DNA from: an uncultured Bacillales bacterium
Lineage (GTDB): Bacteria; Bacillota_I; Bacilli_A; RF39; UBA660
Length of the DNA stretch: 64,000 nt
NCBI GenBank assembly: GCA_947571655.1
Contig: CANOYR010000002.1
Location: forward strand, 44,212 to 108,211
Reading direction: 5' to 3'
The position numbers were made by a program, and so were the translations under genes. The notes under the pieces were generated by a model, which was not told the DNA's origin, ran no database searches, and saw only the letters and a program-made list of their open reading frames with translations. Positions 4,256 through 63,757 of the stretch are shown in pieces; position 1 is the first letter of the stretch, and each line of letters starts with the position of its first letter.

Positions 4256-4911
4256 AGGACCCTCTCTTTTTCTATGATTTCACTGAGTTCTTGAAAAACG
4301 TCTTCCTTACTTTTATCAGCTTGGATATGGTAAAGAAGCTGTTTCTTTTGATAGTAATCTATGAGTGCACTTGTTTTATCTAAGTATTCCTCATAACGAG
4401 TTTCAAATGATTGTTCATTGTCATCACTTCTTTGAAATAAATTACCACCACATTGATCACAGATAGATTCTATTTTTGGTTTTAGAGATTCTATGTTAAT
4501 GTTGTAGAGAGAACCACATTGTTTGCAACATCTTCTACCTGTTATTCTCTTTTTTAGTATTTCTTTTTCTACTTCTAGGAGAAAAACAAAATTTAATTTG
4601 TCATTTTTTTTATTTAATATTTTCTCTAAGTGTTTCGCTTGATGTATATTTCTTGGAAAACCGTCAAATAATAAGTTTTTATTTTTATTTTCTTCCATAA
4701 AATTATCTAGTAATTGGAAGATAATCTCATCACTTACTAAGACTCCGTTTTCCAAAATATTTTTTATTTTTTTCCCAAAATCGTCTTCTCTACTGGCAGA
4801 TTTTCTTAATAAATCTCCAGTAGACAGATGATGTAAATGGTATTTTTTTTCTAATAACTCAGCTTGTGTTCCCTTCCCAGCAGCGGGTGGGGCAAGTAAA
4901 ATAATATTCAT
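4252..4911 (-). CDS. adk: adenylate kinase (zinc-finger LID)
   Basis: P-loop GKGTQ and CxxC...CxxC LID; overlaps map start by 4 nt. Confidence 0.9.
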   Translation of the reverse strand: MNIILLAPPAAGKGTQAELLEKKYHLHHLSTGDLLRKSASREDDFGKKIKNILENGVLVSDEIIFQLLDNFMEENKNKNLLFDGFPRNIHQAKHLEKILNKKNDKLNFVFLLEVEKEILKKRITGRRCCKQCGSLYNINIESLKPKIESICDQCGGNLFQRSDDNEQSFETRYEEYLDKTSALIDYYQKKQLLYHIQADKSKEDVFQELSEIIEKERVL

Positions 4912-4914
4912 TAA

Positions 4915-6198
4915 TTATTTTCTCCTATAACTTTTTTTGTAACTTCTTGTTACTAAGCTTCCTTCAAGCTGTTTGTATGTTTCTAGTGCAACACCAACAA
5001 CAATTAATAATCCAGTACCACCAATGGTTACGTTACTAGGTAAACTAATCTTATTGGAAAGATTAATAAGTGCTGTAAAAGCGATTGGTAATCCTGCAAT
5101 AATAATTAGGAAAATAGATCCTACTACGGTAAGTCTTGAAATTACTTTGGAAATATAGTTTTCTGTATCTTTTCCTGGACGAATTCCTGGAATGTATCCG
5201 CCTCCTTGTTGTAAGTCTTTTGATAACTCCTCTGGTTTGATTTGAATAAATGTATAAAAGTACCCAAAGAAGAATATCAAACATACATAGATTAAAAATC
5301 CAACTGGAGTTGTATAACTTAAATACTGATTACAGAAATCAATAAATCCTTGATCCTTTGTAAATTGTGCAATCGTTGCAGGAATCGCTAAGAAGCTGGA
5401 TGCGAAAATAACTGGGACTACTCCTGCAGCATTAATTTTCATTGGCATAAAACTTTGTGCATTTCCATATGCACTGGTAGATTTATTGGCATATTGAATC
5501 GGGATTTTACGATCCGCTTCTTGCACCCAAATTACTCCAATTACAATTAGGAAATATACAACAATGAATAGTACAAATAGACCAATTCCTATTGCTTTCG
5601 CAATGGCAGAATTTACAACCAATCCTTCAAAGGCTGCAATAAACATTTGAGGGAGCGTTTCGATAATTCCAGCCATAATAATCAAAGACATTCCATTTCC
5701 AATTCCCTTTTTGGTAATTTGATCTCCTAACCATAGGGTAAATGCTGTACCAGCAGTTAGAATCGTTGCAACATATAGATGTTCTAATGCACTTACGTCT
5801 TTTCCTAAGAAGGCAAAGGAAAATGCAAATCCTTCAATGAAGGCAAAGATAATTCCCATATATCTGGTAATCTGATTAATTTTCTGACGACCCACGGGAC
5901 CCTCTTTGGATAATTCGCTAAAATATGGAACAATATCTAGTTGTAATAATTGCATGATGATGGATGCCGTAATGTATGGCATGACTCCTAGTGCAAAAAT
6001 TGAGAATCTTTTTAGGGAACCTCCACCCATCGCATCCATTAATTCTAGAAATCCTAAGTTTCCTGTAATATCAGCAGTTCCAGGAACTCGAATCGATGTT
6101 CCGATAATAAAAATCATTAATGCAGCCAACGTGAACCCGATTCTTTTTCTTAAATCTTTATTCGTCGGTGCAAATAATTGTTTCAATACTTGAAACAT
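4915..6198 (-). CDS. secY: preprotein translocase subunit SecY
   Basis: 427 aa, 10-TM SecY; operon position. Confidence 0.95.
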   Translation of the reverse strand: MFQVLKQLFAPTNKDLRKRIGFTLAALMIFIIGTSIRVPGTADITGNLGFLELMDAMGGGSLKRFSIFALGVMPYITASIIMQLLQLDIVPYFSELSKEGPVGRQKINQITRYMGIIFAFIEGFAFSFAFLGKDVSALEHLYVATILTAGTAFTLWLGDQITKKGIGNGMSLIIMAGIIETLPQMFIAAFEGLVVNSAIAKAIGIGLFVLFIVVYFLIVIGVIWVQEADRKIPIQYANKSTSAYGNAQSFMPMKINAAGVVPVIFASSFLAIPATIAQFTKDQGFIDFCNQYLSYTTPVGFLIYVCLIFFFGYFYTFIQIKPEELSKDLQQGGGYIPGIRPGKDTENYISKVISRLTVVGSIFLIIIAGLPIAFTALINLSNKISLPSNVTIGGTGLLIVVGVALETYKQLEGSLVTRSYKKSYRRK

Positions 6199-9291: not shown

Positions 9292-9603
9292 CTAATCAAT
9301 CTTCTCGTTTGATTTTTTTGAAATTCTTTCTTTTTTGTTTGTCTTTTCATTTATTATATAACCAATTCTAGTTGGTTTTTTTGTTTTTGGATCAATCACC
9401 ATGACATTTGATGCATGAATTGGTGCTTCTACTTCTAAAATTCCACCAGTTTCTTGTCCATTTCCCTTTTTGTGTTTTTTTACAAGATTGACACCTTCTA
9501 CAATTACACGATTTTCTTTTCTAAGTGTCTTTGTGATTTTTCCTTCTTTTCCTTTACTAGATCCGGCTATTACTCTTACTTTGTCTCCAACTTTAAGTTT
9601 CAT
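9292..9603 (-). CDS. rplX: 50S ribosomal protein L24
   Basis: KOW-domain L24 with Lys-rich tail. Confidence 0.9.
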   Translation of the reverse strand: MKLKVGDKVRVIAGSSKGKEGKITKTLRKENRVIVEGVNLVKKHKKGNGQETGGILEVEAPIHASNVMVIDPKTKKPTRIGYIINEKTNKKERISKKSNEKID

Positions 9604-9614
9604 AATATCCTCCT

Positions 9615-9983
9615 TTATAGCACTTCTTTCGCTAAAGATACTATTTTCATGAAATCTTTGTCGCGTAATTCACGAGCAACTGGTCCAAATATACGAGTTC
9701 CAACTGGACTCTTGTCTTCTTTGATGATTACGCAAGCATTGTCATCGAATTTAATATAGCTTCCGTCATCACGACGAACACCACGTTTGCTTCTTACGAT
9801 AACAGCTTTTACAACTTTTCCTTTTGCTACAGTTCCATTAGGTGTGGCATTTTTTACTGTACCAACAACTATGTCACCGATATTTCCTGTTTTTACTTTG
9901 CTTCCACCTAGTACACGAATAACTAACAATTCTTTTGCACCAGAGTTATCTGCAACCTTTAAACGGCTTTCTTGTTGTAACAT
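9615..9983 (-). CDS. rplN: 50S ribosomal protein L14
   Basis: [19 protein letters not shown]... canonical L14. Confidence 0.95.
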
Positions 9984-13988: not shown

Positions 13989-14774
13989 TTATTCGCTTAC
14001 TTCTTCGCTTGATCCTTCAGCAACTGGAGCATCTTCTGTAGATCCTTCTGTAACATTTTCTTGTTCAGTTTTCTCTTCTTCTACAGCTTCTTCTGTAGGT
14101 TCTTCTACTACTTCATAAGTAATTAACTCTTCCATTTCGTTAATTTTTTCTCCTTTTTTTACTGAAGTTCTAATCATAACTAAAGATTTTTTAGGACCTG
14201 GAACGTTACCTTTTACTAAAATCACATTGTTTTCTAAATCAACGTCTACTACTTCTAAATTTTGAACAGTAGTTAATACGTTACCCATGTGTCCAGGAAG
14301 TTTCTTTCCTTTTAATACGTGCATTGGTAACATTGTACCAAGAGAACCTACTCCTCTATGATATTGAGAACCATGCCCCATGGGCCCACGAGATTGATTG
14401 TGTCTTTTAATTACACCTTGGAATCCTTTTCCTTTACTAATTCCGCTAACATCCACAATTTCTCCTTTTGTGAATACACTAACGTTTAGTTCTTGTCCTA
14501 ATGTGTAATCTTCAATATTTACTCCCCTAATTTCTCTTAAGAAGCGCTTAGGTTCTGTATTCGCTTTTTTTGTATGACCCGTTTTTGGTTTGTTACTGTT
14601 TTTTGGTTTGATTGTTTCATATCCTAATTGAACTGCATTATAACCATCAGTTTCTACTGTTTTAATTTGAGTAACTATGTTAGGTTGTACTTCAATTACA
14701 GTAACTGGAATTAATCTACCGTTTGTCGTAAATACTTGAGTCATTCCAATTTTCTTACCTAAGATTCCTTTCAT
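13989..14774 (-). CDS. rplC: 50S ribosomal protein L3 with ~50-aa acidic C-terminal extension
   Basis: [15 protein letters not shown]... canonical L3 core (~210 aa) followed by a Glu-rich tail ([38 protein letters not shown]). Confidence 0.9.
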
Positions 14775-14788
14775 ACTTTTTCCTCCTA

Positions 14789-15106
14789 TTAATTTTGTTG
14801 TACTTTGATTTTAATATCAACACCGCTTGGTAAATCTAAGTGCGCTAGGGCATCTACTGTTTCCTTGCTTGGGTTTTTGATATCAATTAGTCTTTTGTGC
14901 GTACGCATTTCGAATTGTTCACGGCTGTCTTTATATTTATGAACAGCTCTTAAAATTGTGTATTTTTCAATTTCTGTTGGAAGTGGTACTGGTCCACTGA
15001 TTTCTCCACCAGTTCTATGTACTGTTTCCACAATTTTTTTTGCAGCATTATCTAGAATTCTATGATCGTATGCTTTTAAGTTTACGCGAATTTTATCTTT
15101 TGACAT
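14789..15106 (-). CDS. rpsJ: 30S ribosomal protein S10
   Basis: [19 protein letters not shown]... canonical S10; first gene of the operon. Confidence 0.95.
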
Positions 15107-15228
15107 TTTGAATCCTCCCTTCGCCTATATCTAGTATAGACTTGCTCCGTGTGAATTACCCGATTTTACCGAACAACTTAACCCGGTGTATCGACAACCT
15201 CCCACATCTAAGCAGCCACACGCATAAA

Positions 15229-15257
15229 ATTATAGCATAATAGGTATTGTTTCGCAA
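15229..15257 (-). promoter_or_regulatory. sigma-A type promoter of the S10 operon (TTGCGA-17-TATAAT on minus strand), followed by a ~120-nt relatively GC-rich leader (15107..15228)
   Basis: Minus-strand reading: TTGCGAAACAATACCTATTATGCTATAAT. The leader contains several short hairpins before the rpsJ RBS AGGGAGGA. Confidence 0.55.
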
Positions 15258-15291
15258 GTATTTTTTCTAAATTTCTTTGTTTTTAATTCCA

Positions 15292-15333
15292 TAATAAAAA
15301 AACCTAATTCCTTCTTTTTTGATGAATCAGGTT
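15292..15333 (-). terminator. rho-independent terminator downstream of gpmI
   Basis: Minus strand AACCTGATTC...GAATTAGGTT stem (1 mismatch) followed by TTTTTTTAT. Confidence 0.6.
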
Positions 15334-15400
15334 CCAATTTTATTTCTTTATATTTAGTAATATCTGTCAAAGTTGATAGACATTTATATGGTTTCATAAG

Positions 15401-16912
15401 CTATTTTATTTTTTGTACTAATACTTCTTTTGTCATTTCTTTTGGAATTTCTAATCCCATAATTTTTAGTATTGTAGGTGCAATATCTCCAAGCTTTCCA
15501 TCTTTTACTTGATACTTTTTATCACAAACAATGAATGGTACCTTATTTGTTGTATGTGAGGTTATAATGTTTCCTTCTTCATCAATCATTAATTCACAGT
15601 TTCCGTGATCGGCAGTTACAATTAGAGTACCACCTAAATCTTGAATTTTATGATAGACCTTACCCAAGTTCTCATCCACCGCTTCCACTGCTTTAATGGC
15701 AGCTTCTAAAACACCAGTATGACCTACCATGTCGCAATTTGCAAAGTTTAAAATTATGATATCATAGATATTTTTATCTAATTCTTTTAATAGACTATCC
15801 GTAACTTCAAAAATACTCATTTCAGGTTTTAAATCGTAGGTTGCTACTTTTGGAGATGGAATTAATATCTTTTTTTCATTCCTATAATCTACTTCTTTTC
15901 CACCATCAAAGAAAAATGTTACATGGGCATACTTTTCAGTTTCTGCAATACGTAATTGAGATAATCCTTTCTTTTCTATATATTCTCCCAAAATATTACT
16001 TAGCGATGGATCATCAAAAGCATGAGATGCAATTACTGATTCTACAACTGGTAGCATTGTTACTACCTTTACGTTATTAAAATGTTTTACTTCCATATCA
16101 TTAAAAGATGGATTAGTAATTGCTGTTAGTATTTCTCTTAAGCGATCTTTTCTATAATTAAATACAATCACCCCATCGTTTTCAGAAATATTTCCATCCT
16201 TTTCAAATACCGCTGGAATTAAAAATTCATCTGTTATTCCCTTTTGATAACTTTTCTCAATATACTCTTTCATAGAGGTAGATTGATTTCCTATAGAGTT
16301 CACAATTGCATCATACCCTTTTTTTAATCGGTCATAATTGTTATCTCTATCCATTCCGTAATATCTACCACCAATACTTGCGATTTTACCGATTCCAAGG
16401 TTCTTCAATTTTTCTTCTACTTGAAAGATATATTGATAGGCACTTTTTTTATCTACATCTCTTCCATCTGTAAATAGATGAAGATATAAATTTTCTATTT
16501 CATTTTGTTTACATATATCTAAAATAGCCATCAAGTGATCAATGTGTGAGTGTACTCCTCCGTCGCTAATTAATCCCAGTATGTGGAGTTTAGAATTATT
16601 TTTTTTAGAATGATTGATTACTTTTAGAATTTCTTTGTTATCAAAGAATTCCTTACTTCTGATACTTGTATTTATTAATTCTTGAGGCTGATACACTACC
16701 CTTCCTGCCCCTATATTCATATGACCAACTTCAGAGTTTCCCATCTGTCCTCTTGGAAGTCCTACTGGCTCTCCACTCGCATCTAAAGTACTATGTGGAT
16801 AAGTTTCCCATAAAAAATCAAAATTAGGCTTTTTCGCTAATTTGACAGCATTTCCATCTCTTTCCTCTCTAATTCCAAATCCATCAAGGATTGCTAGTAA
16901 TACTGGTTTCAT
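15401..16912 (-). CDS. gpmI: 2,3-bisphosphoglycerate-independent phosphoglycerate mutase
   Basis: 503 aa, MKPVLLAILDGFGIRE... iPGM family. Confidence 0.9.
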   Translation of the reverse strand: MKPVLLAILDGFGIREERDGNAVKLAKKPNFDFLWETYPHSTLDASGEPVGLPRGQMGNSEVGHMNIGAGRVVYQPQELINTSIRSKEFFDNKEILKVINHSKKNNSKLHILGLISDGGVHSHIDHLMAILDICKQNEIENLYLHLFTDGRDVDKKSAYQYIFQVEEKLKNLGIGKIASIGGRYYGMDRDNNYDRLKKGYDAIVNSIGNQSTSMKEYIEKSYQKGITDEFLIPAVFEKDGNISENDGVIVFNYRKDRLREILTAITNPSFNDMEVKHFNNVKVVTMLPVVESVIASHAFDDPSLSNILGEYIEKKGLSQLRIAETEKYAHVTFFFDGGKEVDYRNEKKILIPSPKVATYDLKPEMSIFEVTDSLLKELDKNIYDIIILNFANCDMVGHTGVLEAAIKAVEAVDENLGKVYHKIQDLGGTLIVTADHGNCELMIDEEGNIITSHTTNKVPFIVCDKKYQVKDGKLGDIAPTILKIMGLEIPKEMTKEVLVQKIK

Positions 16913-17089
16913 TCTATCCTCCTATTTTCAAATTATTGTGGATAAAGTATATCACTGGTTTCCATTTCACAAATTTTGTTTTGAATATAATTTTTCTTAT
17001 ATCTATAATTTTTTCATAAACATTCCTTCTACTAGTGAACGTTTGATTCCAATGTACACTTATATTATTTATATTAAGTGAGGATGTTT

Positions 17090-18397
17090 TTATAGACTTT
17101 CTTTCAAACAGAATGTGGCATATACAGGAACATAGCGAACATTTCTCTTTATACTAAAGTTATCCTCTGTAATTCGTATTCCTTCTGATATATTAAATTT
17201 ACTCATAAACAGGGAAAGGGATTTTGCCTTTGAAATATTTTTATTCACAACTTCGATTGGAATGATTTTTCCAGCTCTTGTCTGTACTACAAATGGCACT
17301 TCTGCTTTTCCCTCTGATTGATAATAATAGAGATTATACCCACAGGAAGTAATTGTAGTTGCGATATTATTTTCGTAAAGAATATATTTTATGTTTTCAT
17401 CTGTTAGTAGTCTTATTTTGGATAAATGCATCATCATAAACAAAATACCTGTATCATTTAGGTATAGTTTGAAGCTTTCAGAATCCTTACAATGACTAAG
17501 AGGCGGTTTTACCTCACTAATTTTATAACATTTGTAGGCGATTCCATTGGCACTTAAGAAACTTAATGCCTTTTCATAATCTTTACTTCTTCCTCCTGTT
17601 CTCATTAATCCATATTGAAATTTTCGATTGGACTTTAATAATTGGTATGGCAAAATATTCAATACATCTTCTGATCTTTGAATATCGATTAGTGTATCAA
17701 TTCCTAATAAGGCTTTTTTGTAACAATCAAGCACTTTTTCTTGAATCATTTTAATTTTTAAATCTGACTGATTGTTAATGCTTGCTTGAACTACCTCTGG
17801 TAATCCTCCTGTCATTAAGTATGTTTCATAATGATCTAATGCGATGTTATGGAATGGCATTGGCTTATTATTTCTATAGGAACTTTTGATAAATTCTATG
17901 AGTTCTGTATTTCCCACTGCTCTTAGGTATTCTTCGAAGTCCATCGCAAACATATAGCGATACTGCAATTCTTCTCCTTTAAATAGGGGTAATTTTTCAC
18001 GGTTAGACGTAATTAAAATGATGTGATATTCACTGCTTTCTTTTCCAAATTTTTTAAATCCTTTGATAATCTCTTCCTCTACGATGTTATCAATGATAAT
18101 TAAAGTATCATTTTTTAAAATCGTTTCTCCAATGAGCAGAGAAAGTCTTGCAATGATTCTATCTGTTGTTCTTTCTTTTTGCATAATACTATCAAGTGTC
18201 GTATTATTATTGCTATTAATATAGGCTACCGTTTTATACTCTTTTTCTCCAAATTCAATCGCTGTATAAGTTTTTCCTACTTGCTTGTTTCCATATAATA
18301 ATAATGGCTTACGATTTTGATCTCTTTTCCACTTTTGTAAATCTTGATATATTTTTCGTTCCATAAACCGCCCTCTCCTTACACTATTTTTATTCAA
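17090..18397 (-). CDS. AAA-family ATPase with DUF4143-like C-terminal domain
   Basis: Walker A GNKQVGKT and Walker B IIIDNI with a long C-terminal domain. It resembles the widespread AAA_14/DUF4143 ATP-binding proteins of unknown function. Confidence 0.6.
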   Translation of the reverse strand: MNKNSVRRGRFMERKIYQDLQKWKRDQNRKPLLLYGNKQVGKTYTAIEFGEKEYKTVAYINSNNNTTLDSIMQKERTTDRIIARLSLLIGETILKNDTLIIIDNIVEEEIIKGFKKFGKESSEYHIILITSNREKLPLFKGEELQYRYMFAMDFEEYLRAVGNTELIEFIKSSYRNNKPMPFHNIALDHYETYLMTGGLPEVVQASINNQSDLKIKMIQEKVLDCYKKALLGIDTLIDIQRSEDVLNILPYQLLKSNRKFQYGLMRTGGRSKDYEKALSFLSANGIAYKCYKISEVKPPLSHCKDSESFKLYLNDTGILFMMMHLSKIRLLTDENIKYILYENNIATTITSCGYNLYYYQSEGKAEVPFVVQTRAGKIIPIEVVNKNISKAKSLSLFMSKFNISEGIRITEDNFSIKRNVRYVPVYATFCLKESL

Positions 18398-18556: not shown

Positions 18557-19330
18557 TTATTTACTATAGCTTTTTTGAAATTCTAAACGTAACTTGTCTG
18601 CAACAGTTACGATAAATTCTGAATTGGTTGGTTTTGCCTTATCGATATCTACACTATGACCGAAGATATCTTCCATCAAATCCCAATCTCCACGATTCCA
18701 ACTCACTTCAATCGCATGACGAATCGCACGTTCTACCCTCGATACTGTTGTGTCAAATTTTTCAGCAATACTTGGATATAATTCTTTTGTAATCCCGCCA
18801 ATTACATCTGGCTTGTCATAAATAATTGAAATCCCTTCTCTAATGTATTGATATCCTTTGATATGTGAGGGAATCCCTAATTCATGAAGAATTTTAGTAA
18901 TTGAAATTTGTAAATTGTTATGATAAATGTCGATTGAGGTATTTCGATAATTATTTTCTTCTTGGCATTCCTCTAGTCTTCTTTCTAAATCTGATAATTC
19001 AAACGGTTTTAGTATGAAATAGTTCACACCATATTCTGATACTTTTCTAATCATATCTTGTGAGTTATATGAGGTTAGAACAATGATTTTCTTATCAATT
19101 TGCTCTTTTCTCATTGCTTCTAGAATAAATAATCCATCTTTCTTTGGCATAATTAAATCTAGAATGATGGTATCATACTCACTTTGTCTTTTGCGGATTA
19201 ACTCTAACCCTTCTTCACCATCATTTGCTTCTAAAACTAATTCTATACTAGCGTGATTTTTAAAATACTCCTTAATCATTCCTACTAATTCGATATTATC
19301 ATCGACCATAAGTACTCTGACTTTTTTCAT
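18557..19330 (-). CDS. spo0A: sporulation master regulator Spo0A (response regulator with Spo0A_C DNA-binding domain)
   Basis: Receiver domain (MVDDN...D...LDLIMP) plus C-terminal [35 protein letters not shown]...[20 protein letters not shown], near-identical to the B. subtilis Spo0A signature helix. Start taken at [11 protein letters not shown]. Confidence 0.9.
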
Positions 19331-19423
19331 ATTTTCCCCTTTCTTACTACACGCATCTTCATTATACAATATAATTTTACAAAATGATATGGCGAAGATT
19401 CACTAGTTTTGTCAAATAGTGTC

Positions 19424-23897: not shown

Positions 23898-23926
23898 TTG
23901 ACTTGTGTATATATTACACATATAAT
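23898..23926 (+). promoter_or_regulatory. promoter TTGACT-17-TATAAT for the NUDIX regulator gene, with a perfect 17-bp palindrome TGTGTATATATTACACA as spacer (candidate operator)
   Basis: Read directly; the palindrome occupies exactly the -35/-10 spacer. Confidence 0.5.
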
Positions 23927-23943
23927 GATGATATGGTGATATT

Positions 23944-24603
23944 ATGGAAACCAAAAATCCAAAATACAGGGGGCAAGGAATTCATGTAATGGCATCAATT
24001 TTTACAGTTGATCATGGGGTTGTAAAAATTCTTTTAGTAAAAAGAAATATGGAACCATTGGATGGAATGTGGTCCTTACCTGGTGGTGCATTATATAATG
24101 ATGAAGATTTAGATGATGGGATGGATAGAGAACTTCTTGAAAAAACAGGTCTTATCATTCCTAATTTAAGACAATGTGGTGTTTTTGGGAAAGCACATCG
24201 AGCTTTCTGTATGCGTATGGTTGCTATTTCCTATTTTGGAGTAATCTCTCAATTTAAAGTAGAACATTTCAATTCTACTTTAAAGAGTTCTAATGCCAGA
24301 TGGTTCTCAATTCACCAAATTCCACCTCTTGCTTATGATCATGAGGAAATTGTTAAAGATGCTTTGGAAAAGTTAAAAGAGGGAATTTTCGAATCCGACA
24401 TTCTTACTAGTCTTTTTTCAGAAAAATTTACACTCCCTGAAATTCAAAGAGTTTATGAATCTATTTTGGGAACGAAATATGATCGTAGAAATTTTAGGAA
24501 AAAGATGCTTTCTTTAGATTTAATTGAAGATACTTTTGAAACAGCAAGATTTGAAGGAAGGAAACCAGCAAAACTTTATCGTTTTCGAAAGGAAAACAAG
24601 TAA
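23944..24603 (+). CDS. NUDIX hydrolase domain fused to C-terminal winged-helix (NrtR-like transcriptional regulator)
   Basis: Nudix fold (LPGGALYNDEDLDDGMDRELLEKTGL) plus a C-terminal RNFRKKMLSLDLIE...GRKPAKLYRF segment resembling the NrtR wHTH. Confidence 0.6.
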   Translation: METKNPKYRGQGIHVMASIFTVDHGVVKILLVKRNMEPLDGMWSLPGGALYNDEDLDDGMDRELLEKTGLIIPNLRQCGVFGKAHRAFCMRMVAISYFGVISQFKVEHFNSTLKSSNARWFSIHQIPPLAYDHEEIVKDALEKLKEGIFESDILTSLFSEKFTLPEIQRVYESILGTKYDRRNFRKKMLSLDLIEDTFETARFEGRKPAKLYRFRKENK

Positions 24604-24628: not shown

Positions 24629-25252
24629 ATGGCAAAATTAATTTATTTTTACAGTGCGATGAAGGGAGGAAAGAGTAGTATTTTAATTTCAATCGCTTAC
24701 AATCTAGAAGAAAATCAACAACGTGTATTGGTTGTAAAACCTAGTATAGATACCAAAGGGGATGATACTATTATTTCTAGAGCTGGTGCTGGCCGAAAGG
24801 TTGATTTTTGTATTGATAAGGAAGAAAGTTTTTTTTCTGATGAAAATTTTTCTAAAATCTTTAATTCAGAGGTCATAATTATTGATGAAGCACAATTTTT
24901 AACTAAAAATCAAGTAGAAGAACTCTGGATTATTTCAAAAAAATTAAATACTCAAGTCATGGGATTTGGTCTTCGCGCTAATTTTAAAGGACAACTTTTT
25001 GAGGGTAGTCAAAGATTTTTTGAACTTGCTGATGAAATTTCTGAGCTTCCTGTAATTCCAAGTTGTAAGTGTGGAAAGAAAGCTTTGTTTAATGCTAGAA
25101 TGGTGAATGGAAAGTACACAATGGCAGGTGAAGAATGTGTTATTGATGGAAGCCAATCAGAAATTACTTATGAGCCACTTTGTGGAGAATGTTATTTATC
25201 AAAAGTTGTTTTACCTGAGAACAAAATGTATTTTAAAAGATTTCATCAATAA
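24629..25252 (+). CDS. tdk: thymidine kinase
   Basis: P-loop GKSS, IIIDEAQF and a C-terminal Cys4 zinc ribbon; 207 aa. Confidence 0.9.
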   Translation: MAKLIYFYSAMKGGKSSILISIAYNLEENQQRVLVVKPSIDTKGDDTIISRAGAGRKVDFCIDKEESFFSDENFSKIFNSEVIIIDEAQFLTKNQVEELWIISKKLNTQVMGFGLRANFKGQLFEGSQRFFELADEISELPVIPSCKCGKKALFNARMVNGKYTMAGEECVIDGSQSEITYEPLCGECYLSKVVLPENKMYFKRFHQ

Positions 25253-25715
25253 TTTATTGAAACTCTATTTATTTATAATTTTATAAATTTCTATTTTATT
25301 TTGTGTCTTTCAATTTAAGTTTCATCATTTACCTTTAAGTCTTAAGTACTGAGGAAAATAAAAAATGATAGATGAAAAACTATGATATAACAATGAATTT
25401 TGTCAATTTTTATGTGAATAAAGTCGTATTCAGCTTGCTTGGGAGTAAGTTATAAAGCGAGTTTTTCGGTACTGAGAAAGTGAATACGAAAAAATCTTAA
25501 TTTGTAGATATTTCTTATTTATATTGAAAACGGTGATTGAGAAAATTAGAAAATATAATGAATTTATCACATGATTTCATGTGTTTGATATGGTGAATGT
25601 GTAGAATTTCTCATTTTATAAAAATATGTCATTCAAAGATTAGTAGAAACTAATCAAGTAGTATGAAATTTATCATGAGTGAACTGGACATTTCGTACGA
25701 CTGATAAATGCAGTT

Positions 25716-25748
25716 AAAAAGAAGAGATTTTTTTATTCTCTTCTTTTT
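25716..25748. terminator. bidirectional rho-independent terminator between convergent tdk and gap
   Basis: AAGAAGAGA-TTTTTTTAT-TCTCTTCTT perfect 9-bp stem flanked by A/T runs. Confidence 0.7.
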
Positions 25749-26754
25749 ATATGAATTCCATTAGTTTTTTAGCTGTACGAACCAATTGACTCGTATAGGA
25801 ATTTTCGTTATCATACCAAGCAACTACCTGAACTAATGTCTTCCCATTTCCAATTGATATGCTCTTTGTTTGGGTGGCATCAAAGATAGAACCATGTGTA
25901 TCACCAATAATATCACTAGATACAATTGGATCTGTTGTATAACCGTAAGATTCTGAAACGAATTCTTTCATCTTGTCATTAATTTCTTCTTTGGTCATTT
26001 CTCCTTCTACTACTGCATCTAATATCGTTAAAGATCCATCTGGTACAGGAACTCTTTGGGCTCCTCCAATTAATTTTCCAGATAGTTCTGGAATGACTAA
26101 TCCGATTGCTTTTGCAGCACCTGTAGAATTTGGAACAATGTTAATTGCTCCTGCACGAGCTCTTCTTAAATCCCCCTTACGATGAGGGCCATCTAAAATC
26201 ATTTGATCTCCCGTATAGGCATGAACCGTTGTCATGATTCCAGAAATAATAGGAGCAAATTTATTTAGTGCATCTGCCATTGGCGCAAGACAATTAGTGG
26301 TACAAGAAGCTGCTGAAATAATTGAATCTTCTTTTGTTAGAGTATTTTCATTTACTCCATATACAATGGTAGGTAAATCAACTCCTGCGGGGGCGGAAAT
26401 AATTACTTTTTTGGCACCTGCCCTAATATGTGCTTCTGACTTTTCTCGTGATGTGAAGAAGCCTGTACATTCTAATACGATTTCTACTCCTAATTCTTTC
26501 CAAGGTAGTTCTTCAGGATTCTGTTTTGCATAAACTGGAATCTCTTTTCCATTCACCTTAATTCCTGTTTCTGTTGGATATACTGTATCTGCTAATTCAT
26601 ACTTTTTTTGTGCTGAATCATATTTTAATAAATGAGCTAACATTTCTGGACTTGTCAAATCATTAATTGCGACAATTTCAAAATCTTTCATTCCAAACAT
26701 TTGACGAAAAGCAAGTCGTCCAATTCGTCCAAATCCGTTAATTGCAACTTTCAT
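25747..26754 (-). CDS. gap: glyceraldehyde-3-phosphate dehydrogenase
   Basis: [16 protein letters not shown]...SCTTNCLAP; start placed at MKVAING with RBS GGAGGAG. The ORF track begins 26 codons upstream. Confidence 0.9.
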
Positions 26755-26865
26755 TTTATCCTCCTCTTTCCTAGTTTCAATATATAGTTTTTGTATTTTA
26801 ATGTCAATATATTCAGAAAAAGTCGCTTTCAAGTTGTCACTTTTTTATATGATACTATTAAAAAA

Positions 26866-26967
26866 TATCCACAATTTTTGTTGAATTGTTTTTTTGATTT
26901 ATTTTTTCAACAATTTCTGTGGATATTTTTAGTTTTAGAAAATCTTTTTCCACTATTTTTGTGGATA
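26866..26967. repeat. array of three ~23-bp repeats, each with an ATATCCACA (DnaA-box-like) core inside an imperfect palindrome CCACA-N5-TGTGG (26869..26883, 26908..26922, 26950..26964), upstream of the gap promoter
   Basis: Units AAAAATATCCACAATTTTTGTTG (+), CTAAAAATATCCACAGAAATTGTTG (-) and TAAATATCCACAAAAATAGTGG (-), spaced 39 and 42 bp. A fourth, perfect copy CCACAGTTTCTGTGG is at 63670..63684. Confidence 0.5.
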
Positions 26968-26968
26968 T

Positions 26969-28621
26969 TTATATTTTAAAGCATCCTCCTCCAATAAATT
27001 CTCTTAAAATTGAATCTTCTGGAATACTCTCAGAAGAAATTGGTAAGAAAATTCTTAGAAAGTTAATTAAGCGTAGTGCCTCATTATAGTAAGGAGAGTC
27101 TGGTGGTACAGAATAAAGTAGCGGTTCTACAAAGGTTTTTAATACTCCCAGTTCATAAATCATGGCAGTGTTATATGTATAATCTGCATCATCTTGATAT
27201 GGGAAAATATATTTTTCTTCTCCTAGTCTTACCTTTTTCCATTTTTCTAAGGTATCTTCTACTGTGTTTCCTCTTGTACGATTATCTCTTACAATTCTAC
27301 GTAATAGGCGATTATCTGTTGTTGATACTCTTGTATGATTATCGATATTTAATTCTGTTAGTGCAGATAGGTAAATAGTAATTTTATCTTCTTTTGGTAC
27401 ATGTTCTAACACTTTTGGATTTAAAGCATGAATTCCCTCAATTAGTAAAATATCGTCATCCTCTAAACACATTTGCTCTTTAAATTCTTTTTTTCCTAAA
27501 ATAAAATTGTAGGTTGGAATTTCTGTTTTTTCTCCTGAAATTAATTTTTGAACTGTTTTTTCAAATAGTTTTAAATCAATCGCTTCTAATCGTTCAAAGT
27601 CTGGTTTTCCATCCTCATCTAATGGGGTTTCTTTTCGATCGACAAAGTAATCATCCATAGAAAGCATTTTAGGATTACATCCTAAGCTCTTTAAACAAAA
27701 AACTAGTTTATTAGTCGTCGTTGTTTTTCCAGTGGAAGATGGTCCTGCAAGTAATACTATTTTTGCAGTATTCTTTTTTAAAACAATAGATTTGGCTAGT
27801 TCTAATAATTTCGCATTTTTTACTAATTCATCAATTCGGATTAACTCTTCAATTTTACTTTCTGATACTTTTTGGTTTAAATCGACTACGTTTTCTAAAT
27901 GAAGAAGTTTCGCCCATTCTCTTGACTCTTTAAATAAATTAAAGACTTTTTCACGATGTTCATAGGGCTTGATTCCATTTTCCATATAAATGGTTGGAAA
28001 TCTTAATACAAAACCATTTCTGTGAAGGTAAGTAAGTTCAAAATGAGATAGACATTTTGTATTAATTGGCATTTGACTGTATAAATAGTTATAAAATGGA
28101 CCTAGTTTGTAAAGATTTACATGAGTAGATGGAATATAGTTCATAATATCTTTTTTTACATAATCTCCAGTATTTTCAAAATAACTCATCGCATCAAATC
28201 TTGTAACTGTAACTTTGCTGATTGGTAGGTCATCTTGAACAATTTTTCTCATTTCTAGTTCTAGTCTTTTTAGAGATTCTTCTGAGATTCTACGAGTTGT
28301 TTCAATATATAAACCTTTGTCAATTGAGTGATTCACTTTCACTTCTATTTGATTTCCAAATAGTTTTTTCGCTGCATAAATTACTAAGTAAATTAATCCA
28401 TTCAGATATACTTTATTCGCACCTGAATCCGTTAAATCTAAAAATTCTACTGTACAATTCTTGTGGATTGTTGTGGTTAGTTCTTCATAGATTCCATCAA
28501 TTTTAGCTAAAATAATTTCATATTTAAAATTGTCTTGATATAGTTTTGACAGTTCTTCTAAGGAAGTTCCATTAGTTACTTCCATAATATTTCCATTCAC
28601 AGTTACTTTTACACTGTTCAT
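26969..28621 (-). CDS. TGS-like N-terminal domain fused to uridine kinase/PRK-family P-loop nucleoside kinase domain
   Basis: N-terminal beta-grasp-like segment, then Walker A LLAGPSSTGKTTT and uridine-kinase-like motifs. Start placed at MNSVKV (alternative: 28660). Confidence 0.6.
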   Translation of the reverse strand: MNSVKVTVNGNIMEVTNGTSLEELSKLYQDNFKYEIILAKIDGIYEELTTTIHKNCTVEFLDLTDSGANKVYLNGLIYLVIYAAKKLFGNQIEVKVNHSIDKGLYIETTRRISEESLKRLELEMRKIVQDDLPISKVTVTRFDAMSYFENTGDYVKKDIMNYIPSTHVNLYKLGPFYNYLYSQMPINTKCLSHFELTYLHRNGFVLRFPTIYMENGIKPYEHREKVFNLFKESREWAKLLHLENVVDLNQKVSESKIEELIRIDELVKNAKLLELAKSIVLKKNTAKIVLLAGPSSTGKTTTTNKLVFCLKSLGCNPKMLSMDDYFVDRKETPLDEDGKPDFERLEAIDLKLFEKTVQKLISGEKTEIPTYNFILGKKEFKEQMCLEDDDILLIEGIHALNPKVLEHVPKEDKITIYLSALTELNIDNHTRVSTTDNRLLRRIVRDNRTRGNTVEDTLEKWKKVRLGEEKYIFPYQDDADYTYNTAMIYELGVLKTFVEPLLYSVPPDSPYYNEALRLINFLRIFLPISSESIPEDSILREFIGGGCFKI

Positions 28622-28763
28622 ATTATCACCCTTATTCTCTTTATTATTTATTAATCCCATTGTATCACAATTTTTCTAATTTATTACAATTTTATCGGAA
28701 TTTGTCTTCTTCTTTTTTGTATGGTCTTTGATTATCCATTGTAAAATAGTATTAGGTGATAAT

Positions 28764-29348
28764 ATGAATTTAGTACCAATGGTAGTAGAAAAGGAGACAA
28801 ATGGGGAGAGAAGTTATGATATTTTTTCTAGACTTTTAAAGAATCGAATTATTCTTTTATCTGGAGAAATCACAGATGATACTGCCAATAGTGTCATCGC
28901 CCAAATTTTATATTTGGATTCTTTAAATCATGATGATATTAGTTTATATATTAATTCTCCTGGGGGATCCGTTACTGCTGGTATGGCAATTTATGATACG
29001 ATGAATTTTGTAGAAAGTGATGTTTCTACAATTTGCTTGGGAATGGCCGCTAGCATGGCTGCCTTTTTATTATCTTCTGGAGAAAAGGGAAAACGATTTA
29101 TTTTACCGAATGGAGAGGTTATGATTCATCAACCTCTCGGAGGCGCACAAGGACAGGCAACAGAAATTAAGATTGCGGCAGAACATATTTTAAAGTTACG
29201 AAAAAGATTAAATGAAATGCTTGCTGAAAATACTAATCAAAAAATTGAGACGATCGAACACGATACAGAACGAGATAATTTTATGGATAGTAAAGAAGCA
29301 TTAGAATATGGACTCGTTGATAAGATTATAGAAAAAAAGATTAAATAG
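28764..29348 (+). CDS. clpP: ATP-dependent Clp protease proteolytic subunit
   Basis: Catalytic triad context ([14 protein letters not shown]); start placed at MNLVPMVV. Confidence 0.9.
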
Positions 29349-63641: not shown

Positions 63642-63669
63642 TAGATTTTGACTTTTACTTTGTTTTTTT

Positions 63670-63695
63670 CCACAGTTTCTGTGGATTTTTTTATT
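63670..63695 (+). terminator. terminator: perfect palindrome CCACAG-TTT-CTGTGG followed by ATTTTTTTATTT
   Basis: Read directly; the palindrome matches the gap-upstream repeat family. Confidence 0.55.
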
Positions 63696-63757
63696 TAATA
63701 AAAAAAAACTTATTTTTTCACAAGTTCTGTTCATATTTTTTTACTTTCATACGCCTT

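Follow-up and report, generated by a model that had tools for sequence, protein, structure and literature searches.

An array of DnaA-box-like palindromes in a putative terminator region between a PRK-like gene and gap in an uncultured lineage of Bacilli

The stretch of DNA analyzed here, hereafter the window (64 kb from an uncultured Bacillales bacterium), raises the question of whether an array of DnaA-box-like palindromes lying ahead of gap is an operator of that gene, a binding site for DnaA, or the end of the transcription unit upstream. The window has a G+C content of ~31% and a GC skew that is negative throughout, with the minus strand carrying nearly all genes. By exact protein matches, the organism groups with metagenome-assembled genomes of uncultured 'Bacilli bacterium'. 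In the region concerned, two co-directional minus-strand genes are separated by a spacer of 213 bp, which contains the array of three boxes; the upstream one (26969..28660) is a PRK/uridine-kinase-family gene encoding 563 aa, with the PF00485 PRK domain at residues 302–494 (Pfam, NCBIfam), and the downstream one is gap (25747..26754), encoding a type I GAPDH of 335 aa (TIGR01534, 403 bits), with its ATG at 26754 and GGAGG ahead. The stop codon TAA of the PRK-like gene occupies 26971–26969 (minus strand), and the first unit of the array begins 1 nt further on, a position that makes the array a 3′-flank element of the PRK-like gene. An Rfam scan of 25000–29000 at E ≤ 1 gave no RNA family match.

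The exact 9-mer ATATCCACA occurs three times in the 64 kb, always within the PRK–gap spacer (26865–26873 on the plus strand, 26918–26926 and 26960–26968 on the minus strand), against 0.64 expected, a count attained in 1 of 100 shuffles. The pattern CCACA-N5-TGTGG with at most one mismatch is found four times in the window (at 26869, 26908, and 26950, and as a perfect copy at 63670), against 0.56 expected, and none of 100 shuffles gets to four. The three-unit array is non-random; it is only the clustering that is unusual, 9-mers within one mismatch of the perfect DnaA box TTATCCACA not being enriched window-wide (23 versus 22 expected). Described on the minus strand, unit A (ATATCCACAAAAATAGTGGAAAAA, 26945..26968) combines a strong box, ATATCCACA at 26960–26968(−), with a weak box, TTTTCCACT at 26946–26954(+), and folds by itself into a weak hairpin of −5.8 kcal/mol; unit B (ATATCCACAGAAATTGTTGAAAAA, 26903..26930) combines the strong box at 26918–26926(−) with the weak box TTTTCAACA at 26904–26912(+) and provides the 5′ arm of a long hairpin, the 3′ arm of which is provided by unit C (TTCAACAAAAATTGTGGATAT, 26861..26885), bearing the strong box ATATCCACA at 26865–26873(+). 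Units B and C constitute an inverted repeat of 25 nt with 84% complementarity, 20 nt apart. The three units described in an earlier note on this DNA are real, each strong 9-mer lying in an imperfect CCACA-N5-TGTGG palindrome, and the spacings of 39 and 42 bp given there are correct; the phasing by about four helical turns, also proposed there, is not kept in relatives, in which the boxes are spaced by 13, 14, 29, 34, 40, 41, and 55 bp. Because the weak arm in two of the three window units reads TGTTGAA instead of TGTGG, the conserved part is the asymmetric 9-mer and not the palindrome. All three window boxes have A, not T, at position 1.

The relatives compared were the gap neighbourhoods of lineages with 76–92% Gap identity and metagenome contigs sharing the PRK C-terminus; among the matches listed in the Gap search, at least three loci, L022 (92%), L023 (84%), and L024 (76%), lie above the ~72–75% identity of the Clostridia hits. 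In every relative with a sizeable PRK–gap spacer, DnaA-box-like 9-mers begin 1–22 nt past the PRK stop codon, and no boxes are present where the PRK–gap distance is 13–19 bp (L011, L016, L018, and L102). The arrangement of the boxes varies: two inverted units and then a T-run in L004; three units of the form ATATTCACA-N5-TGTGGAwAw in L022, the third being placed between tandem copies of a small ORF; one unit with the perfect TTATCCACA, then a separate canonical terminator, in L010; and ATATCCACA-AAAC-TGTGGATAT with a T-run in L020, where gap is 1.5 kb off. Four or five boxes are found both in L014/L015/L023 and in L105/L108/L111, including one or two lone perfect TGTGGATAA, an N4-spacer palindrome, and TTATCCCCA-N5-TGTGGAAAA. 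The perfect TTATCCACA occurs in all six of these loci as well as in L010, lone unpaired boxes occur in L014 and L015, and L015 has obtained an extra box through a 35-bp tandem duplication.

The small ORF seen in L022 belongs to a family of 107–146 aa located between PRK and gap, whose proteins share a conserved N-terminus (FLCxQGISYVKVENEIH) and are basic at the C-terminus; its members are found in L004 (2499–2918), L010 (2470–2904), L022 (9071–9394 and the tandem duplicate 9494–9907), L006 (2470–2910), and L106. No relative of this family was found in Pfam, NCBIfam, or PDB, and the window contains no copy.

On the coding strand of the PRK-like gene, the long B–C hairpin is followed by a run of six T residues (T6; 26865–26860, minus strand), together forming a terminator-like structure at 26855..26930. 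The hairpin has a calculated energy of −20.6 kcal/mol, with a stem of 14 + 8 bp containing an internal loop, and folding of the 146-nt array region gave z = −7.5. As in intrinsic terminators, a stable hairpin is located directly 3′ of the gene, right after the stop codon and on the coding strand, the U-tract comes right after the stem, and the structure stands between co-directional genes, the downstream one being served by a promoter of its own. Unlike the canonical short G+C-rich stem with a loop of 3–8 nt, the B–C stem is long, AU-rich, and interrupted, with a loop of 20 nt, and its sequence is kept across lineages, unlike that of the terminator of gap; a consensus terminator scan of the minus strand made no call. 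A hairpin with a T-run comparable to the B–C hairpin and T6 is present in L004, L020, and L022. At the level of sequence and predicted structure, the B–C hairpin with T6 is the terminator-like region of the PRK-like gene, an aspect of the array overlooked in the earlier note.

Suitability of the boxes for DnaA was scored with a matrix derived from the position frequencies of 150 experimentally bound B. subtilis boxes (IDAP-seq; PMC4447404, S3 Table). By this matrix, 26826–27000 is the best cluster in the 64 kb, with a score of 19.8, followed by the units at 63.7 kb with 13.9; a score of 19.8 is reached in 1% of 300 Markov simulations of 64 kb, and five array sites have a matrix p ≤ 0.0015. The three ATATCCACA boxes conform to the rule for DnaA-box clusters (DBCs) of B. 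subtilis (TTATNCACA with at most one mismatch). All seven relative loci with a sizeable spacer (L004, L010, L014, L015, L020, L022, and L023), each 7–21 kb long, have their highest-ranking cluster in the 150 bp that follow the PRK stop codon. However, stable DnaA sites in B. subtilis have four successive boxes with a density/affinity value A > 0.3 (PMC2533591), whereas the window array, having only three boxes within one mismatch, 42–53 bp apart, attains A = 0.039. Among the relatives, L105 (0.43) is the only lineage above this threshold, the values being borderline in L014/L015/L023 (0.25–0.29) and in L022 (0.22). Furthermore, E. coli DnaA prefers tandem box pairs 2–3 bp apart (PMC11317965), whereas the array pairs are convergent and 4–5 bp apart. 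There is no GC skew switch in the window, and neither dnaA nor oriC is present in any relative locus examined. As a description at the level of sequence, the DnaA-box cluster offered in the earlier note is the best supported, by the first rank in the matrix scan and by the boxes kept or improved in relatives, but the density known for stable binding in B. subtilis is not attained. In L018, a high-scoring cluster at 4880–5030 falls in a coding Asn/Tyr-Pro-Gln-rich repeat (TATCCACAA = Tyr-Pro-Gln) and was therefore rejected as a matrix artefact, which advises caution in matrix-only scans of AT-rich genomes.

The units also occur elsewhere. At a second locus, after a metallophosphoesterase gene (63666..63736, plus strand), TTTTCCACA-GTTTC-TGTGGATTT with T7 and TTTTTCACA-AGTTC-TGTTCATAT with T7 are found; the perfect CCACA-N5-TGTGG copy reported earlier at 63670 belongs to this locus. 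Relatives whose proteins are 83% and 69% identical still have these units at the orthologous position, as TTATCCACA-N5-TGTGGATTT with TTATACACA-N5-TGTTGATAA, and as ATATCCACA-GAAAT-TGTGGATAT. A third unit locus lies just past the right end of the window, and the species of the window has units in three intergenic regions over 71 kb. In L113, GTTATCCACA-N4-TGTGGATAAC-TTTTT stands after each of two neighbouring genes. The consensus of the unit, ~23 bp in length, is a convergent 9-mer pair, wTwTyCACA-N4/5-TGTGrAwAw. Strict convergent box pairs number 24 in 266 kb of clade DNA versus 0.5 expected, a density that is an upper estimate because the motif itself guided part of the choice of clade loci; at least 22 of these pairs are intergenic, and 1.31 Mb of Clostridia gap loci contain two, both weak. 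Some boxes are located in the loop of a terminator hairpin, not in the stem, and are still conserved. Neither a conserved GTAG-type foot nor a conserved flanking tetranucleotide is present in the units listed, and no family of DnaA-box palindromic terminators came up in a search of the literature. These sequences point to a clade-specific family of intergenic units.

The 9-mer itself appears to be under constraint. In the comparison of L014 with L105, 44 box columns are the same and 3 different, versus 36 and 17 for non-box columns (Fisher p = 0.002), and the three box changes convert CTTTCCACA to the perfect TTATCCACA, breaking a hairpin pair. The units vary at box positions for which the B. 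subtilis matrix is tolerant (1, 3, 5, and 6) and are essentially invariant at positions 4 and 7–9. In the same lineages, the terminator of gap alters its stem sequence by compensatory substitutions, and the PRK terminators of lineages without boxes are ordinary and diverse. The conservation of the boxes, set against such freely drifting ordinary terminators, therefore indicates a sequence-specific constraint on the 9-mer that hairpin formation alone leaves unexplained.

The promoter of gap (26779..26807, minus strand) is composed of TTGACA at 26807–26802 and TATATT at 26784–26779, with 11 of 12 matches, and is kept in relatives; the hexamers are those named in the earlier note, the spacer between them being 17 nt and not 18. 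About 27 bp upstream of the −35 hexamer lies AAGTGACAA (26834..26842, minus strand). This element is kept at an unchanged distance from the gap −35 in all lineages compared, as far as 76% Gap identity, and L014 has it twice. The resulting module, AAAAGTGACAA-N~24-TTGACA-N17-TATAtT, stands ahead of gap in all lineages, including L006 and L024, in which boxes are absent, and L020, in which they sit 1.5 kb away. Since the module travels with gap without the boxes, the reading of the array as the operator of a dimeric regulator of gap or of glycolysis, the other proposal of the earlier note, fails, and we consider it extremely improbable. Such an operator would account for two facts: the units of the window and of L014-type relatives precede the gap −35 by 45–160 bp, and a perfect TTATCCACA at 16937 overlaps the start region predicted for gpmI. 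However, one or two small genes stand between the units and gap in L004, L010, and L022, 1.5 kb of opposite-strand genes intervenes in L020, and, overall, relatives that share the promoter module have the units 0.5–1.5 kb off or lack them, so that the position of the units relative to gap is not kept. The half-sites are not always paired (lone boxes in L014/L015/L105), N4 and N5 spacers are both used, and the gpmI box is absent in L023. Further copies in the clade loci examined do not lie ahead of carbon-metabolism genes; they follow unrelated genes, among them the phosphoesterase gene, or surround a Na/Ca exchanger gene. The nearby NrtR-like regulator (23944–24603) was rejected as a binder; it has its own, different promoter palindrome, TGTGTATATATTACACA. 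In the promoter of this NrtR-like Nudix regulator gene, a promoter divergent from pgk, TTGACT and TATAAT are 17 bp apart, and the palindrome (23898–23926; GT-N7-AC core) takes up precisely this spacer; it is therefore probably the auto-operator of the gene. A glycolysis regulon linked through the gpmI box at 16937 was also rejected, since L023 lacks the box and gpmI there directly follows another gene. As leads and not as tests, the motifs of Rex, CggR, Spo0A, WalR/PhoP, NrdR, CcpN, ParB/Noc, and AbrB were considered, none of which suits the 9-mer, its orientation, or its spacing. For a regulatory or UP-like element of gap itself, AAGTGACAA is a better candidate than the boxes.

It is also conceivable that only the hairpin matters, the units being a copied or dispersed terminator/REP-like family with an inherited likeness to DnaA boxes and a 9-mer read by no protein; we judge this unlikely, though it has to be taken seriously. 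A T-run comes after most units when these are read on the strand of the gene upstream; the B/C pair and units U1/U2 of L004 are REPIN-like inverted doublets making larger hairpins; and in L113 both copies agree almost completely over ~32 nt, T-run included, as copied elements would. The gain of a box by tandem duplication in L015 and the T-for-C changes in the 5′ arm, which preserve G–U pairing on the coding strand, also speak for hairpins alone. Nevertheless, conservation extends to lone boxes, to loop boxes, and to units that no T-run follows (window A, L010, L014/L105, and L022 U1), some arm changes are uncompensated (C to A at box position 6, and T to A giving a perfect box), and the variation of the family centres exactly on TTATCCACA, whereas the other terminators of these genomes drift freely; the GTAG-type foot of such families was not seen in the units. 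A protein of the clade other than DnaA (nucleoid-associated, ParB/Noc-like, or the product of the neighbouring small ORF) that recognizes TCCACA-N4/5-TGTGGA would fit the palindromic form and the dispersed intergenic copies, which amount to about one locus per 20–25 kb. The half-site TTCCAC, which we take to resemble the parS half-site, and the adjoining of a small ORF of no known family to the units in L004, L010, and L022 also speak for such a binder. Yet a dimer with a variable N4/N5 spacer and lone half-sites would be unusual, the 9-bp DnaA matrix agrees with the conserved length and pattern of degeneracy, and the small ORF is absent from the window and present without units in L006 and L106; this explanation seems to us very unlikely.

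The explanation that we favour, to which we give about an even chance, is that the array is a terminator region of the PRK-like gene made from lineage-specific DnaA-box palindromes, which is likely also bound by DnaA and is not an operator of gap. By this explanation, drawn from sequence comparison, three copies of a ~23-bp unit that would be confined to this lineage of uncultured low-GC Bacilli have been assembled in the spacer; on the coding strand, the B–C hairpin with T6 would separate the PRK-like gene from gap as an intrinsic terminator, and gap would have its own promoter module beginning at AAGTGACAA, direct control of the gap promoter by the array being outside the conserved design. 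Selection for binding by a sequence-specific protein, of which DnaA is the most likely, may maintain the 9-mers; the region would then be a low-density DnaA-box cluster and serve as a titration or reservoir site. Alternatively, bound DnaA may possibly act as a roadblock through which termination, and with it read-through into gap, would be reinforced or modulated. Against a role of DnaA, it may be argued that a regular palindrome with a T-run is what a terminator needs and not what DnaA needs, and that three unit-bearing intergenic regions in 71 kb are denser than known DnaA-box clusters. We may further speculate, although we think it quite unlikely, that in this small-genome lineage of Bacilli dispersed convergent DnaA-box pairs double as terminators, so that DnaA spread over gene ends would both buffer the pool of free initiator and, as a roadblock dependent on replication status, tune read-through into genes such as gap, by which initiation control would be linked directly to glycolysis.

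The proposed terminator region with DnaA boxes is worth comparing with known systems. In the asnC/mioC region of E. coli, a DnaA box acts as a transcription block. The array boxes are similarly placed where a transcription unit ends, a point at which DnaA, once bound, could halt RNA polymerase or modulate it; in contrast to the array, the asnC/mioC boxes are single or tandem and next to oriC in a proteobacterium, with neither hairpin-forming inverted pairs nor a dispersed family described there. REP/REPIN elements and the inverted pairs of uptake sequences are short dispersed intergenic palindromes, sometimes arranged as inverted doublets, often at gene 3′ ends, and found as terminators. Unlike REP/REPIN elements, the clade units have an arm consensus that is the DnaA box, with no GTAG foot in the units listed and no RAYT gene seen in the loci examined, and unlike uptake sequences, they have a far lower copy density.

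DnaA itself acts as a transcription factor (PMC8203912), and DBCs outside oriC have been described in B. subtilis (Ishikawa 2007, PMC2533591; Okumura 2012, PMC3245932; Smith & Grossman 2015, PMC4447404), with DnaA titration and local transcription control as their proposed roles. The array resembles these DBCs in being an intergenic cluster of 9-mers (TTATNCACA with at most one mismatch) kept at orthologous positions in relatives; it differs from them in that its three good boxes are 42–53 bp apart, with A = 0.039, that the window boxes are convergent pairs inside hairpins with T-runs, and that the clade unit family looks more dispersed than the eight B. subtilis DBC sites. The DARS core of E. 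coli contains three DnaA boxes, one opposite to the other two, with close and invariant spacing (PMC5742627); the three strong boxes of the window have the same orientation pattern, but they are spaced by 42–53 bp, a spacing not kept in relatives, and no DARS is known in Firmicutes. In the injection-stop region of phage T5, consensus and variant boxes are arranged in conserved inverted repeats, without a role in origin firing (bioRxiv 10.1101/866236), and the boxes TTATCAACA and TTATCCCCA of that region also occur in the clade units; whereas T5 has a phage element with tandem pairs 3 bp apart, the pairs described here are chromosomal, convergent, and terminator-associated. The DARS and T5 precedents show only that opposed or inverted-repeat boxes occur.

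Should these sites be occupied by DnaA, they would represent DnaA-box clusters outside the origin with an unusual design, in which inverted pairs inside terminator hairpins recur at the ends of several genes and are maintained throughout a clade for which only metagenomes are available; DnaA titration or regulatory sites would thereby be extended beyond a few model organisms, and a case of DnaA at transcript ends would be provided. If DnaA does not bind, the result would be an ordinary one, a locally copied terminator hairpin, and the useful remainder would be the correction that gap is not regulated through the array and has a conserved element of its own, AAGTGACAA.

Several minor observations were made along with the above. 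Downstream of gap, between the convergent 3′ ends of tdk and gap, a stretch of 494 bp (25253–25746) is non-coding, and it is probably a deletion scar, because relatives have genes at this position, namely those of AAA_28 (NadR-like), a 209-aa protein of no assigned family, and His_Phos_1. Near gpmI, two perfect TTATCCACA boxes are present on the minus strand (16937–16945 and 16794–16802), 143 bp apart, of which one overlaps the predicted transcription start, just past the extended −10 TGATATACT, and the upstream one is not kept in L023. Between spo0A and gpmI lies a gene for an AAA_14/DUF4143 ATPase (17090–18397, minus strand), inside which several 1-mismatch DnaA-like 9-mers are found (17241, 17417). 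The Spo0A gene (18557–19369, minus strand) scores 273 bits with TIGR02875, the cut-off being 200, and the genomes of relatives are ~1.2 Mb in size. Finally, on L124 of the same species, ~3–7 kb past the right end of the window, a phage-type integrase gene and a run of small ORFs (14253–17651) are probably an integrated element.
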